Assembly: GCA_944325325.1 (NCBI GenBank)
Contig: CALUZP010000065.1
Span: forward strand, 355-64,354
Source of the DNA: an uncultured Desulfovibrionaceae bacterium
Lineage (GTDB): Bacteria; Desulfobacterota; Desulfovibrionia; Desulfovibrionales; Desulfovibrionaceae
Reading direction: 5' to 3'
DNA length: 64,000 nt
Position numbers and translations under genes: made by a program. This document shows positions 8,967 through 46,882 of this stretch, piece after piece (the stretch's first letter is position 1; each line of letters begins with the position of its first letter). The notes beneath the pieces were generated by a model that did no database searches, had not been told where the DNA came from, and saw only the letters and a list, made by a program, of their open reading frames with translations.

Positions 8967-9116
8967 CTAGAGCGTTTTGCCGTTGGAAAAGGCAGAACGC
9001 GAGGCGGCAGCACAACGCTGCCCGGCCAGAATTGAGCGGAAAAACCGCGGTGTTTCCGCGAAACGACAGGCCGTATGGTTTGAAGCGCAAAAGGTTTCAA
9101 ACTGAAAATGCTCTAG
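8967..9116 (+). mobile_element. MITE-like element copy A (core 8971..9112, 142 bp) flanked by CTAG/CTAG
   Basis: Aligns along its full length with copies at 22462..22603, 35894..36034 and 44434..44575. Termini are AGCGTTTTGCC ... CTGAAAATGCT (imperfect terminal inverted repeat). The right CTAG contains the TAG stop of the PHP phosphatase gene. Confidence 0.8.
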
Positions 9117-9952
9117 AAAGGCTGCTCGTACGCCTTGCGTTTTACAAAGTAGCGGCTGCTGGCATAGCCGTACTCACGGGCGTAGTCGGCCAGCCGGTCA
9201 AAGTTCCAGCCCAGCTGTCTCACGTTGTGCGCGTCGGAGGCAAAGGTGACGGGCAGGGCCAGGTCGGCGGCCAGGCGCATGATGCGCGGGCCGGGATAGA
9301 TTTCGGCACAGGGCTTGCGCAGACCGGCTGCCGAGATTTCCATAGCCATGCCAGCCTCTTTCATGGCTGCAAGCGCACGCCGGACTTTTTCCAGATTGTC
9401 GGCGTCGTCAAGCCAGGCGTTGAAGCGGTCCACGCTGAAAATCTTGATAATGTCCGGATGAGCGGCCACATTCATAAGCCGGCTGCCGGCCATTTCGGCA
9501 AGCGCCTGAAAATAGGCGGTGTAGCGCTCGTGGCAGACGTCATCCGAGACGTCCCAGTCAGCGGCGCTGGCGTCAAAGCCCCAGTGCCCGAGAAAATGGA
9601 CGCTGCCAAGCAGATAGTCCCAGGGTTCCGAGGCGGCCATACGGGCGATGAACGGCTGTTCGGCCGAAAACCAGTCCACTTCCAGCCCCAGCAGCACGCG
9701 CAGCGGCTTGGCGTCGGCGGGCGCTGTTTCCCAGCGTTCACGCAGGGCGCGGACTTCAGACAGGTAGGCAGGAAAGCCTGCCTTGAGCTGCTCGCGGTAC
9801 TCCTGTGGATAGTCATAGCCTTCAGGACGCGGCGAGTGTTCGGAAAAACCGAGAATGCGCATGCCGGCGGCAGCCGCGGCCGCGGCCATGTCGGACACGC
9901 TATCCTTGCCATGGGAATAAAAGGTATGGCAGTGCAGATCGACAGTAATCAT
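9113..9952 (-). CDS. PHP-family histidinol-phosphatase (HisJ/HisK type)
   Basis: ORF 9113..10027 trimmed to MITVDLHCHTFYSHGKD at 9952. Has PHP metal motifs (HCH, SEHSP, HPD, SDAH). Confidence 0.8.
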   Translation of the reverse strand: MITVDLHCHTFYSHGKDSVSDMAAAAAAAGMRILGFSEHSPRPEGYDYPQEYREQLKAGFPAYLSEVRALRERWETAPADAKPLRVLLGLEVDWFSAEQPFIARMAASEPWDYLLGSVHFLGHWGFDASAADWDVSDDVCHERYTAYFQALAEMAGSRLMNVAAHPDIIKIFSVDRFNAWLDDADNLEKVRRALAAMKEAGMAMEISAAGLRKPCAEIYPGPRIMRLAADLALPVTFASDAHNVRQLGWNFDRLADYAREYGYASSRYFVKRKAYEQPF

Positions 9953-10910
9953 GGGCAATATCCACAATGGAGAAAAGGGGTTCAACGTTGAATTGGCAAT
10001 AATGAACCAGACTTCTGTCAAGGTCAAGAACGGTCTGGCCCTGTCTGGCGGATCCCCTGTCGGGAATGTCAGGAAGACGCTGGGTGCTGAAGATGTTTTT
10101 GAAGGCAGCGCAGCTGGGCAGGACAGTCTGTCATTTGTAGCGGGATGGATCCTGCCTACCGTTGAGGGGCGTTCCCCGCAGGCTGTATCACCTGCGTGCA
10201 GGAATGGAGCCGGGGCCTGTAACTGCCTGATGGTGCGCGCATGAGGCTGTTTGATGTGCTTTTCATGGTGATGAAGCCGGAGGCGCTGCTCCTCCGGGAC
10301 GCGGTGTACTGTGTGTGCCGGTTGCCAGCCCGGATGGGGCTGTGGAAAACGGGCTGTACCGCCTGCTCTGTGCGGCTGGCGTTTTTCCTCCGGGCACGAA
10401 ATCAGGGATCGGACGATACGTTAGAGAACATCCCTGGTGTTTCTCCCCGTGCCCGGCGACCGGCTTAAGTTTGGCCAAACCTTGGTCTTGGCCGGACTCT
10501 GGCGCACGGCTGATACAGCCGGCGGAGTGGTGTTTGTGCAGCCGGCGGGCGAGACGGTGCTCCATAAGTGAGTGGCCGCTATGGATCTGCAGTCGGTCCG
10601 GACAGGGATGTCCCCATTCTGTCCGTCCTGGATCTGCCTGCCGTGTTTGCAAAAGCAAAGCTGTCTGCAACGCCGGGAATGTTCCGTAGTAAAAACGGTT
10701 TGACGTCTGGAGCAATTCAAGCCATACTTAATGTTTACGCCAGATGGTTTGCTTTTATTAAGCATTCTTTCGCAAAGGTGAATCAAGGCATATATAATAT
10801 ATTGATATTTTTTTAGGAATAAAGTTTTCTTTTCGAAACTATGGCAGTGGTTTCCTTAAAAAACCGCGAAAAACCCTTTTCCGTCAGACTGAACCCGAGG
10901 TAGTTGTCTC

Positions 10911-21681: not shown

Positions 21682-22461
21682 ATGGATTTTGAGCGCGTTG
21701 ATGTATCAGATGCAACATGCTACACAGCTGTTTTCAGAAAGAACCGTTGCTATGCCGCTGAGGATACCGTCTTGAAGAACAGTACGTCTGCAAAAGAAGC
21801 GCAAAGGAAGCCCGTTTCAGGACGGGAAATCGTCTATCAATATATTCAGAAGCAGATGAAGCGGGGGGAAATTCCTCCGGGGAGCGTGCTGGATCTGCGT
21901 GCCATCAGTCAGGCGCTCGGCATCAGCAGCACGCCGTTGCGCGACTCGCTGATCCGGCTTGAGGCTGAAGGCTATGTAAGCATTTTCCCACGCAGCAAGG
22001 TCGTGGTGAACAGGCTGGAGCTGGAAGATTTCCCGTTTTTGTATGAAATCATGGGGGCGTTGGAGTACACGCTCATTGCCGGTGCTATGGACGCCTATAC
22101 GCCTGAACTGCTGGCTGAAATGCGGGCCATGAACACCCAGATGCGTGAAGCGCTGCTCGCCGGCGACATGACCAGCTATGACGAGCGGCATTATGCGTTT
22201 CATGAGACGTTTTTCCAGGTGCGTCCCAATCTGTTTGCCAAGCGGATTCTTAAGCCCATCAAGAACCGGCTCTGGGATTTCCCCCGAAAGAATTTTGTAC
22301 GGGAATGGTATGTGGCCGCTACGGAAGAGCATGAGATGATTGTCGCGGCCATTGAGGCCAGGGACGCTGAAGCGCTGGCGCATGCGGTCAAGGAACGGCA
22401 CTGGGATTTTGCCTATAACCAGGATTCCATCTGCAAGGCGTACGCCTTCGAACAGGCTTAG
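21682..22461 (+). CDS. GntR-family transcriptional regulator (FadR/FCD subfamily)
   Basis: wHTH LRAISQALGISSTPLRDSLIRLEAEGYVSIFPRSKVVV followed by a helical FCD-like domain. The true start may be downstream (for example TTG 21772, preceded by GAGGA). Confidence 0.85.
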   Translation: MDFERVDVSDATCYTAVFRKNRCYAAEDTVLKNSTSAKEAQRKPVSGREIVYQYIQKQMKRGEIPPGSVLDLRAISQALGISSTPLRDSLIRLEAEGYVSIFPRSKVVVNRLELEDFPFLYEIMGALEYTLIAGAMDAYTPELLAEMRAMNTQMREALLAGDMTSYDERHYAFHETFFQVRPNLFAKRILKPIKNRLWDFPRKNFVREWYVAATEEHEMIVAAIEARDAEALAHAVKERHWDFAYNQDSICKAYAFEQA

Positions 22462-22607
22462 CGCCTTTTCAGTTTGAAATGCTTTGCGTTTCAAACCATA
22501 CGGCCTGTCGTTTCGCGGGAAAAACGTGGTTTTTTCGCTCACGTCTGGCCGGGCGGCGCTGTGCCGCCGCCTCGCGTTCTGCCTTTTTCAATGGCAAGAC
22601 GCTCTAG
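22458..22607 (-). mobile_element. MITE-like element copy B (core 22462..22603, 142 bp) flanked by TTAG/CTAG
   Basis: Reverse-complement alignment to copy A across the full length. The left TTAG contains the TAG stop of the GntR gene. Confidence 0.8.
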
Positions 22608-34366: not shown

Positions 34367-35893
34367 ATGATCGCGCGGCTGTGCTGCGGCGGCGTCCAGG
34401 GAGTGGAAGGCTTCCGGGTGGATCTTGAGGTGGAATTGGTCCGCAGGGGCCTGCCCGCCTTTGTTATGGTGGGGCTTGCCGAGGGGGCGGTGCGTGAAGC
34501 CAGGGAGCGGGTGCTTGCCGCTGTCCGGGCAGGCGGGTTCCGCCTGCCGCCAGCGCGTGTGACGGTCAATTTTGCCCCTGCCGATCGCCGCAAGGAGGGC
34601 AGCGCCTACGATCTGCCGCTGGCCGTGGGACTGCTGTGCGCGGCGGAACTGCTGCCTGAAGGCTGTGCCCAGGGCTGGTTTCTGGCGGGTGAACTGTCTT
34701 TGACGGGTGAGCTGCGCGCTGTGCCGGGCATCCTCCCGTTGGCGCTGCTGGCCAGAAAGGAAGGCGCAAAGGGCATGATCGTCCCGGCCGCCAACGCAGC
34801 GGAAGCGGCAGCCGTGCAGGGCCTGCCTGTATACGGCATGGCCTCGCTCGGTGAAGTTGCGGCGTTCCTTGCCGGTGCCCGTGCGGCGTCGCCTGTGCCG
34901 TTTGTCCGGCCGGAGCTTGAACATCCGGCCTACCCGGTGGACTTTGCCGACGTCAGAGGCCAGGAGCATGCCAAGCGGGCCATCGAAATTGCCGCCGCCG
35001 GCGGGCATAACCTGCTGTTCGTAGGTCCCCCCGGCAGCGGCAAGAGCATGCTGGCCCGGTGCATCCCCACCGTGCTGCCGCCGCTCACCTTTGAAGAGTC
35101 GCTGGAGGTAACCAAGATCTACAGTGTTGCCGGAAGGCTTGGCAGCCACGGGCTTATCCTGGAACGGCCCTTTCTGGAACAGCATCCTACGGCCTCGGAA
35201 ATCGCCCTTGTTGGCGGCGGAGCCATTCCCCGCCCGGGAGCGGTATCGCTGGCGCACAGGGGGGTGCTGTTTCTGGACGAGCTGCCTGAATACCCGCGCG
35301 GCGCGCTCGAAGTGCTCCGCCAGCCGCTGGAAACAGGAGAAGTCACCATTTCACGATCAGCCCAGATCGTCACCTTCCCTGCCGACTGCATGCTGGTTGC
35401 GGCCATGAACCCGTGCCCCTGCGGCTATCTGGGCGATCCGGGGCACGAGTGCGTATGCTCCCCCGCTCAGATCCGGCGCTACCAGGGGCGGATCTCAGGC
35501 CCGCTTCTTGACCGGATTGACATGCACGTCACTGTGCCGGCTGTGCCGTATGACGAATTGCAGTCCGGCAGGCCCGGCACCAGCTCGGCCGTCATGCGGG
35601 AACGCATTGCTGCAGCACGGGCTGTGCAGAGGGAACGCTACAGGTCCATGCCCGGCTGCCGCACCAACGCCGATCTGGCCGGCCGGGCGCTGTCGGTGTG
35701 GTGCGAGCCGGACAAGGCCGGTCAGGCCTTCCTGCGCGAGGCTGTGCACAACCTGGCGCTGTCCGCCAGGGCCTATACCAGGATTCTGCGCATCGCGCGG
35801 ACCGTTGCGGATCTGGACGGCTGCGAACACGTCGAGCTGCGCCACCTGGCCGAGGCGGTCAGCTGCCGTGTGCTCGACAGGGATCGCGGCTAG
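34367..35893 (+). CDS. YifB/ComM-family Mg-chelatase-like AAA+ ATPase
   Basis: ORF trimmed to MIARLCCGGVQGVEG at 34367. Has a Lon-like N-terminal domain, Walker A GPPGSGKSMLARCIP, GVLFLDELPE and a C-terminal ChlI-like domain. Confidence 0.92.
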   Translation: MIARLCCGGVQGVEGFRVDLEVELVRRGLPAFVMVGLAEGAVREARERVLAAVRAGGFRLPPARVTVNFAPADRRKEGSAYDLPLAVGLLCAAELLPEGCAQGWFLAGELSLTGELRAVPGILPLALLARKEGAKGMIVPAANAAEAAAVQGLPVYGMASLGEVAAFLAGARAASPVPFVRPELEHPAYPVDFADVRGQEHAKRAIEIAAAGGHNLLFVGPPGSGKSMLARCIPTVLPPLTFEESLEVTKIYSVAGRLGSHGLILERPFLEQHPTASEIALVGGGAIPRPGAVSLAHRGVLFLDELPEYPRGALEVLRQPLETGEVTISRSAQIVTFPADCMLVAAMNPCPCGYLGDPGHECVCSPAQIRRYQGRISGPLLDRIDMHVTVPAVPYDELQSGRPGTSSAVMRERIAAARAVQRERYRSMPGCRTNADLAGRALSVWCEPDKAGQAFLREAVHNLALSARAYTRILRIARTVADLDGCEHVELRHLAEAVSCRVLDRDRG

Positions 35894-36038
35894 AGTCTTT
35901 TGCCATTGAGAAAGGCAGAACGCGAGGCAGCAGCATAGCGCCGCAAGGGCAGAACTGCACGGCCCCCGCGTTGTTTCTGCGAAACGACAGGCCGTATGGT
36001 TTGAAACGTGAAGCGTTTCCAACTGAAAAAGGCTCAGG
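35890..36038 (+). mobile_element. MITE-like element copy C (core 35894..36034, 141 bp) flanked by CTAG/CAGG
   Basis: Same orientation as copy A and the most diverged copy. The left CTAG contains the TAG stop of yifB/comM. Confidence 0.75.
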
Positions 36039-44429: not shown

Positions 44430-44579
44430 TCCATGAGCATTTTCAGTTTGAACCGTGTTACGTTTCAAACCACACGGCCTGTTGTTCCGTGAAAAAACGC
44501 GGTTTTCCGCTCTGTTTGGGCCAGGCGGCGCTGTGTTGCCGCCGCGCGTTCTGTCTTTTTCAATGGCAAAACACTCATG
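44430..44579 (-). mobile_element. MITE-like element copy D (core 44434..44575, 142 bp) flanked by CATG/CATG
   Basis: Reverse-complement alignment to copy A. Lies inside the rplY-pth spacer and has a perfect 4-bp flanking direct repeat. Confidence 0.8.
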
Positions 44580-46806: not shown

Positions 46807-46882
46807 TGGCTGGGGCGGAAGGACTCGAACCCTCGAATGACGGGACCAAAACCCGTTGCCTTACCTGCTTGGCGACACCCCA
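46807..46882 (-). tRNA. tRNA-Gln (anticodon UUG), CCA encoded
   Basis: Reverse complement is TGGGGTGTCGCCAAGCAGGTAAGGCAACGGGTTTTGGTCCCGTCATTCGAGGGTTCGAGTCCTTCCGCCCCAGCCA. It folds as a cloverleaf with a 7-bp acceptor stem, anticodon loop TTTTGGT and T-loop TTCGAGT. Confidence 0.93.

Follow-up and report, generated by a model that had tools for sequence, protein, structure and literature searches.

Results

Four copies of a repeat in the window

The window, by which we mean the whole stretch of 64,000 nucleotides that was analysed, contains four copies of a short repeat, here referred to as the Desulfovibrio MITE, which can be aligned to each other over approximately 144 bp (Table 1). A 20-mer from the core of the element occurs four times in the window, with an expected number of zero. 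Three of the copies adjoin the ends of genes encoding ComM/YifB, a GntR/FCD regulator, and a PHP-domain phosphoesterase, and the identities of all three genes are backed by Pfam. The neighbours of the fourth copy are ctc, encoding L25, and pth. A preliminary description of this DNA had noted that in three of the four copies the TAG stop codon of the adjacent gene lies within the tetranucleotide flanking the element, and the coordinates of all three proved to be correct. An Rfam search of the whole window at gathering threshold returned a tRNA as its sole match and none on the MITE.

Table 1. Copies of the MITE and associated genes in the window
Feature	Position	Strand	Remarks
MITE copy A	8970..9113	+	144 bp; TA duplications 8968-8969 and 9114-9115
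MITE copy B	22461..22604	-	144 bp; TA duplications 22459-22460 and 22605-22606
MITE copy C	35893..36035	+	143 bp; TA duplication 35891-35892; right flank degenerate (AG, 36036-36037)
MITE copy D	44435..44576	-	142 bp; in the ctc-pth spacer; AT/AT flanks 44433-44434 and 44577-44578; off any stop codon
comM/yifB (Mg-chelatase-like AAA ATPase)	34367..35893	+	stop TAG 35891-35893, within CTAG 35890..35893; TA (duplication) plus G (element base 1)
GntR/FCD regulator gene	21682..22461	+	stop TAG 22459-22461, within TTAG; TA plus terminal base of the right end of copy B
PHP-domain phosphoesterase gene	9113..10027	-	stop 9115..9113, within CTAG 9113..9116; TA plus terminal base of the right end of copy A
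tRNA gene	46810..46882	-	

The element forms a large, structured family in gut Desulfovibrio

A search profile made from the four window copies yielded 276 matches, which merged into 272 elements, in the window and a set of further loci with a total of approximately 790 kb of gut Desulfovibrio DNA. Both termini were present in 134 of the 272 elements. The loci were obtained by an exact-pattern scan of species-representative genomes that returned at least 118 blocks; nearly all of the blocks listed belong to gut Desulfovibrio, including D. piger ET209, Ca. D. intestinigallinarum, Ca. D. gallistercoris, and several MAGs. Since each locus is an 8-kb block selected for the presence of the element, the counts given here describe element-bearing regions of about a dozen species, mostly MAGs, and not a whole-genome census.

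The element is 142–147 bp in length, has no coding capacity, and is present in many dispersed copies in about a dozen Desulfovibrio genomes. Its 144-nt consensus is bounded by imperfect inverted ends of approximately 19 nt, GAGCGTTTCACCTTTGAAA and GAGCATTTTCAGTTTGAAA, and the commonest left end among the copies is GAGCGTTTCAACTTTGAAA. The consensus folds into four hairpins with a minimum free energy of -73.6 kcal/mol (z = -7.3). Direct counts of base pairs over 112 copies revealed compensatory pairs in the two subterminal hairpins, at positions 9:25 (CG in 65 copies, TA in 27), 10:24 (AT in 65, GC in 21), and 117:125 (CG in 69, TA in 29); these counts track subfamilies and therefore represent few independent events. 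RNAalifold recovered only hairpin 1 from the 112-copy alignment, probably on account of alignment gaps.

Short forms of the element occur as internal-deletion variants of approximately 90 bp and as mini-elements of 26–35 bp. The latter are flanked by TA and comprise little beyond both ends or hairpin 1; examples are located at L080:1610-1640, L072:3075 (minus strand), L001:5197, and L025:2295 (positions within the numbered loci). The mini-element in L080 is placed exactly on a stop codon, and the orthologous sites are empty. A blastn search of plasmids with the MITE consensus gave no match. In the literature, which our searches covered incompletely so that absence is weakly supported, we found neither a description of this Desulfovibrio family nor any account of stop codons overlapped by the termini of a MITE.

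The element duplicates 2 bp, mostly TA, in a YTAR context

Intact TA/TA flanks were observed in 56 of 145 copies, and most of the others are one transition away from this state. Among the intact copies, a pyrimidine (T or C) precedes TA in 47 and a purine (A or G) follows it in 45; both occur together, giving the motif YTAR, in 36 of the 56, as TTAA (12), CTAA (9), TTAG (9), or CTAG (6). The base at -3 (T 27, C 20, A 7, G 2) and that at +3 (A 25, G 20, T 9, C 2) vary independently. The target duplication thus spans 2 bp, with no repetition of the bases on either side of TA. The occupancy per site was 14–16% for CTAG and CTAA/TTAG, 7% for TTAA, and at most 3% for every other context, values that would reflect the intrinsic preference of the transposase, as read from surviving copies and not from de novo insertions. 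The insertion preference that had been proposed for CTAG/YTAG is real and strong, and the motif itself is broader than suggested.

Occupied and empty versions of orthologous sites were both found, demonstrating presence/absence polymorphism. Empty sites were compared by anchoring on the flanks, as the cross-species MAFFT alignment was unreadable. The sequence CAC TA[GAGCAATTTTCAAAGGTGAAACGCTC]TA G TCG in L080, which harbours a 26-bp mini-element, corresponds to CAC TAG TCT in both L030 and L009. A copy in L068 is flanked by TT on either side, compared to a single TT at the empty site in L093, indicating that the duplication comprises 2 bp but is not strictly TA. In a sister lineage, the comM ortholog, whose protein is 92% identical, ends with ...GGC TAG and is not followed by the element; it is the sole informative homolog, and its intergenic DNA is too diverged to be aligned beyond the stop codon. 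Matched flanks other than TA were observed in about 10 of the 145 copies (AA/AA in 4, AT/AT, TT/TT, and CA/CA in 2 each), for example at copy D of the window (44433-44578), L004:5278-5412, and L068:6573-6716.

Two other readings of the termini were considered and rejected. Hairpin elements of the IS200/IS605 or RAYT type (REP/PATE) insert 3' of a fixed tetra- or pentanucleotide and have neither a duplication nor inverted ends, whereas the present element has inverted ends and a true TA duplication. Duplications of 3 or 4 bp are incompatible with flanking bases that vary independently and with an empty site that has a single TA.

A candidate autonomous partner belongs to the IS630 family

A metagenome scan was performed using a query that combined the shared terminus with two 'not-this-base' positions, by which the interior of the MITE was excluded. 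The scan yielded elements of approximately 996 bp (L204 and L218) that are flanked by TA within CTAG and have the ends GAGCATTTCAACTTTGAAA, as found in L204. According to Pfam, these elements encode an HTH open reading frame and a DDE_3 open reading frame, and the latter passes the NCBIfam model NF033545 (IS630 family transposase) with 123.6 bits at a cut-off of 100. Through a homolog named IS630 family transposase, we also located a unit of 999 bp, including both TAs, in a Desulfovibrio sp. MAG (L244:1-999), which has perfect 19-nt ends, GAGCATTTTAACTTTGAAA. Its transposase is encoded in two overlapping frames, and the A-run at the overlap (ttttaaaaaaaactc) suggests programmed frameshifting. 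Many of the transposase homologs are situated on contigs of approximately 1 kb, as is expected of a multi-copy repeat that breaks assemblies.

A link to the MITE was provided by the start of a contig (L115) from the MITE-rich Ca. D. intestinigallinarum, where one end of such an IS reads into its interior. This 19-nt terminus is identical at 19 of 19 positions to the commonest left end of the MITE, and by our own reading of the sequence the adjoining interior encodes the C-terminus of a transposase. Within the window and the 790 kb of loci, searches for paired ends and multi-copy proteins returned no full-length IS; what they yielded were mini-derivatives and a second MITE family. By the criteria tested, the repeat is a MITE of IS630-family descent, with the ~997-bp IS630-family element as its candidate partner. 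Its mobilisation would most probably depend on a DDE transposase of the IS630 family acting in trans.

Insertion at a stop codon rebuilds TAG

Both ends of the element open with G, so that the junction reads TA|G inward from either flank. Accordingly, the present stop codon is TAG at all 27 stop-associated complete copies. The codon that preceded the insertion was reconstructed from the distal duplication and the next base; among the 27 copies it was clean TAG in 10, TAA in 5, and TAT or CAT in 3, while in the remaining 9 the distal duplication has decayed, mostly to xAG or xGG. A gene in L080 with the element at its stop codon has orthologs ending with TAA (L030) or TAG (L009). Thus, TAA stops were turned into TAG in 5–6 of the 27 cases. 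A hit on a stop codon rebuilds TAG, even from TAA, because the duplicated TA is completed by the terminal G of the element. It had been suggested that the duplication regenerates the stop; the stop is indeed kept, but the duplication contributes only TA, and the G comes from the first position of the element. The gene is entered via the left end of the element in 16 copies and via the right end in 11, revealing no orientation bias.

Insertion can occasionally trim a few C-terminal codons. At L040:7546-7684, L101:647-786, and L101:1527-1666, the pre-insertion codon is the non-stop TAT or CAT, and these three insertions may have cut off the final few codons and brought in a TAG of their own. Two of the genes concerned score low for coding potential (about 20 and 73) and may be artefacts of gene calling.

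The stops of the genes called in the window and L001-L118 comprise 245 TAG, 174 TGA, and 135 TAA (17, 19, and 10, respectively, in the window). TAG as the commonest stop codon is unusual for bacteria. In these element-rich blocks, 46 of the 245 TAG stops are located at MITE termini. The high usage of TAG results in a larger supply of stop-codon targets.

Occupancy of stop codons follows the target motif

The association with gene ends was quantified on genes called with a codon-usage model of our own, not on curated annotation; the calls recover the expected genes of the window. The element is found at gene 3' ends beyond the window, as had been predicted: 46 of 382 termini lie exactly on a called stop. 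Stop codons also turned out to be tolerated landing sites, since 27 of the 134 complete copies (20%) occupy stops; the other 107 lie between genes, with not a single copy in coding sequence.

When all non-coding TA sites are considered, 27 stop sites are occupied and 325 free, compared to 107 and 5174 intergenic sites (OR 4.0, p = 4e-8). At YTAR sites only, the corresponding numbers are 19 occupied and 137 free at stops against 71 and 503 in intergenic regions (OR 0.98), and at non-YTAR sites 8 and 188 against 36 and 4671 (OR 5.5, p = 3e-4). Stratification by context gave an expectation of 23.5±4.1 stop-associated copies, with 27 observed, and a Mantel-Haenszel OR of 1.22. The null model based on intergenic sites, which had been put forward as the decisive comparison, hence reveals no enrichment at stops once the YTAR context is matched. 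Dedicated targeting of stop codons beyond the YTAR preference is not supported, and the simple explanation in the preliminary description, a target preference that makes stops natural landing sites, is right in outline.

The composition of the target sites is in line with these numbers. Stop codons make up 40% of the CTAG sites in the loci, with 53% of these sites located between genes and 7% within coding sequence; the corresponding shares for CTAA/TTAG are 14% at stops and 16% in coding sequence. A fifth of all non-coding YTAR sites are stop codons, which would account for the roughly one in five surviving copies that adjoin stops. The three cases in the window are therefore not the coincidence that a lack of enrichment had been expected to imply, but a by-product of the motif. 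At the family-wide rate of 0.21, finding three of four copies at stops has a probability of ~0.03; by our own arithmetic this rises to ~0.09 at the rate of the window itself (~0.3, from 12 stop sites among ~40 non-coding YTAR sites). Three stop-sited copies out of four in one window are mildly lucky.

Two departures from a uniform distribution over the motif were observed. Approximately 18% of the unoccupied YTAR sites are coding, yet none of the 134 copies lies within a gene, which indicates purifying selection. With respect to spacer type, 56 elements are in tandem, 19 in convergent, and 9 in divergent spacers, compared to 196, 52, and 73 free YTAR sites; copies are thus under-represented in divergent (promoter) spacers and over-represented in convergent ones. 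The depletion in divergent spacers is consistent with selection against promoter disruption. In addition, the approximately fivefold excess at non-YTAR stops is not predicted by a pure target-preference model. Possible causes are a wider sequence context, selection, or uncalled genes that swell the intergenic class.

Discussion

Origin of the stop association

We consider it very probable that the repeat is a non-autonomous MITE of the IS630 type whose TA/YTAR preference and terminal G explain the association with stop codons with no recognition of the stop codon as such. Insertion sites show a 2-bp duplication that is nearly always TA, with YTAR strongly favoured. Where the TA that is hit opens a TAA or TAG stop codon, the upstream gene retains its full length and ends with TAG. 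Intragenic insertions would be purged by selection, while those at stops or in spacers would be tolerated, and in these GC-rich genomes YTAR sites would be scarce within genes.

A further step would be to regard the G at both ends as an adaptation that turns TAA and TAG stops into harmless landing pads, and hence into reserved safe sites. We view this extension as unlikely. If it applied, the conversion of TAA to TAG and the occasional new C-termini (the three TAT/CAT candidates) would be its side effects, the element could contribute to the high TAG usage of these Desulfovibrio genomes, and the excess at non-YTAR stops (OR 5.5) would be the footprint of a selective advantage.

Alternatively, copies might be kept at gene 3' ends by positive selection for a function as terminator, mRNA 3'-end stabiliser, or RNase target, and not through the supply of sites. 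The very strong structure of the element and the excess remaining at non-YTAR stops would fit such a role, as would copy A, in which a hairpin followed by a T-run forms a terminator-like site in the direction of the PHP gene; in copy C, however, no terminator-like site was found. A function at gene ends would also account for the bias towards convergent and away from divergent spacers relative to free YTAR sites, but purifying selection explains the depletion in promoter spacers equally well. Similarly, pairing in the subterminal hairpins is kept by compensatory changes, but these are in transposase-proximal hairpins and track subfamilies, as expected if the structure serves transposition. Given that stops show no excess in the preferred context and that neither orientation prevails, we regard a 3'-end function as unlikely.

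The ends of the MITE start with GAG, and ends of this kind are listed for several IS5-family groups in the ISfinder tables. The element might accordingly stem from an IS5-family IS (IS427, ISL2, or IS1031 groups, with ends GAG/GA) or duplicate 3–4 bp of YTAR, as does MITEPsy1 of Pseudomonas syringae, an IS5-related MITE with a 4-nt duplication at CTAG or YTAA targets (PMC3189936). The two elements have their target words in common, but differ in that MITEPsy1 duplicates 4 nt and is derived from IS5, whereas the Desulfovibrio MITE duplicates 2 nt and is derived from IS630. An IS5 origin is highly improbable in view of the non-duplicated bases at -3 and +3, the single TA at empty sites, and the IS630-family transposase encoded by the matching autonomous element. 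Pure coincidence, with no site preference and three stops hit by chance, would suffice for the window, which alone is not significant, but is extremely improbable given the TA flanks and YTAR preference over more than 100 copies, the number of termini placed exactly on called stops, and the crude enrichment over all non-coding TA sites.

Relation to known elements

As a non-autonomous IS630-type MITE, the element is best compared with IS630 itself, which is said, in work by Tenzen and Ohtsubo from the early 1990s, to duplicate TA within CTAG. The two have in common the 2-bp TA duplication and a CTAG-like palindromic context, and the transposase of the candidate partner falls into the same NCBIfam family. 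They differ in that the Desulfovibrio MITE is non-autonomous and has a broader preference, with CTAA/TTAG used about as readily as CTAG and followed by TTAA; the candidate partner, of ~997 bp, is set apart by a transposase that spans two overlapping frames, the overlap containing an A-run.

Among MITEs, RUP (repeat unit of pneumococcus) is non-coding, has inverted ends resembling those of IS630-Spn1, inserts at TA, and is present in many intergenic copies; reportedly, its preferred targets are IS elements (PMC2229807). The Desulfovibrio MITE resembles RUP and IS630-Spn1 as a non-coding element of ~100–150 bp with IS630-like inverted ends, insertion at TA, and many intergenic copies. In contrast to RUP, it resides in a host of another phylum, has YTAR as its target, has a fifth of its copies at stops, and possesses ends that start with G and rebuild TAG. 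The Correia/NEMIS elements of Neisseria are structured MITEs of ~100–155 bp that occur in a long form and in short forms with internal deletions, and that have TA termini and stem-loop transcripts (PMC2229807). Size, structure, long and short forms (the ~90-bp variants), and TA at the termini are shared with the Desulfovibrio MITE; however, the same review names no autonomous partner for Correia/NEMIS, whereas a candidate IS630 partner is available here.

No new mechanism is revealed, and the Desulfovibrio MITE joins the known IS630-derived MITEs. It provides a quantified example of how a short transposon target motif can mimic targeting of gene ends. The ingredients of this mimicry are a TA/YTAR preference, a terminus beginning with G, and a genome with almost no YTAR outside spacers and stops. 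The results are also of value for the annotation of gut Desulfovibrio (D. piger group): copies of this abundant family interrupt MAG assemblies and lie flush with stops, where TAA can be turned into TAG or a few C-terminal codons can be lost, and a candidate IS630 partner is now identified.

Related elements in other loci

Several sequences related to the MITE were encountered. In another species, the comM ortholog ends with TGA and is followed approximately 150 bp downstream by composite fragments of the element (L083:3950-4390); with ~320 bp of other sequence between the left and the right part, this arrangement may represent a nested insertion. A second MITE family of ~160 bp in Desulfovibrio MAGs has an unrelated interior but the same GAGC...GCTC termini and TA flanks (L039:3402-3570 and 5744 to the end; L048:679, minus strand). 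The metagenome scan revealed many more MITE families that share this IS630-type terminus, such as TAGAGCATTTTCACTTTGAAAATGCTCTAACGGACGATGGCG... in L124, L126, and L131.
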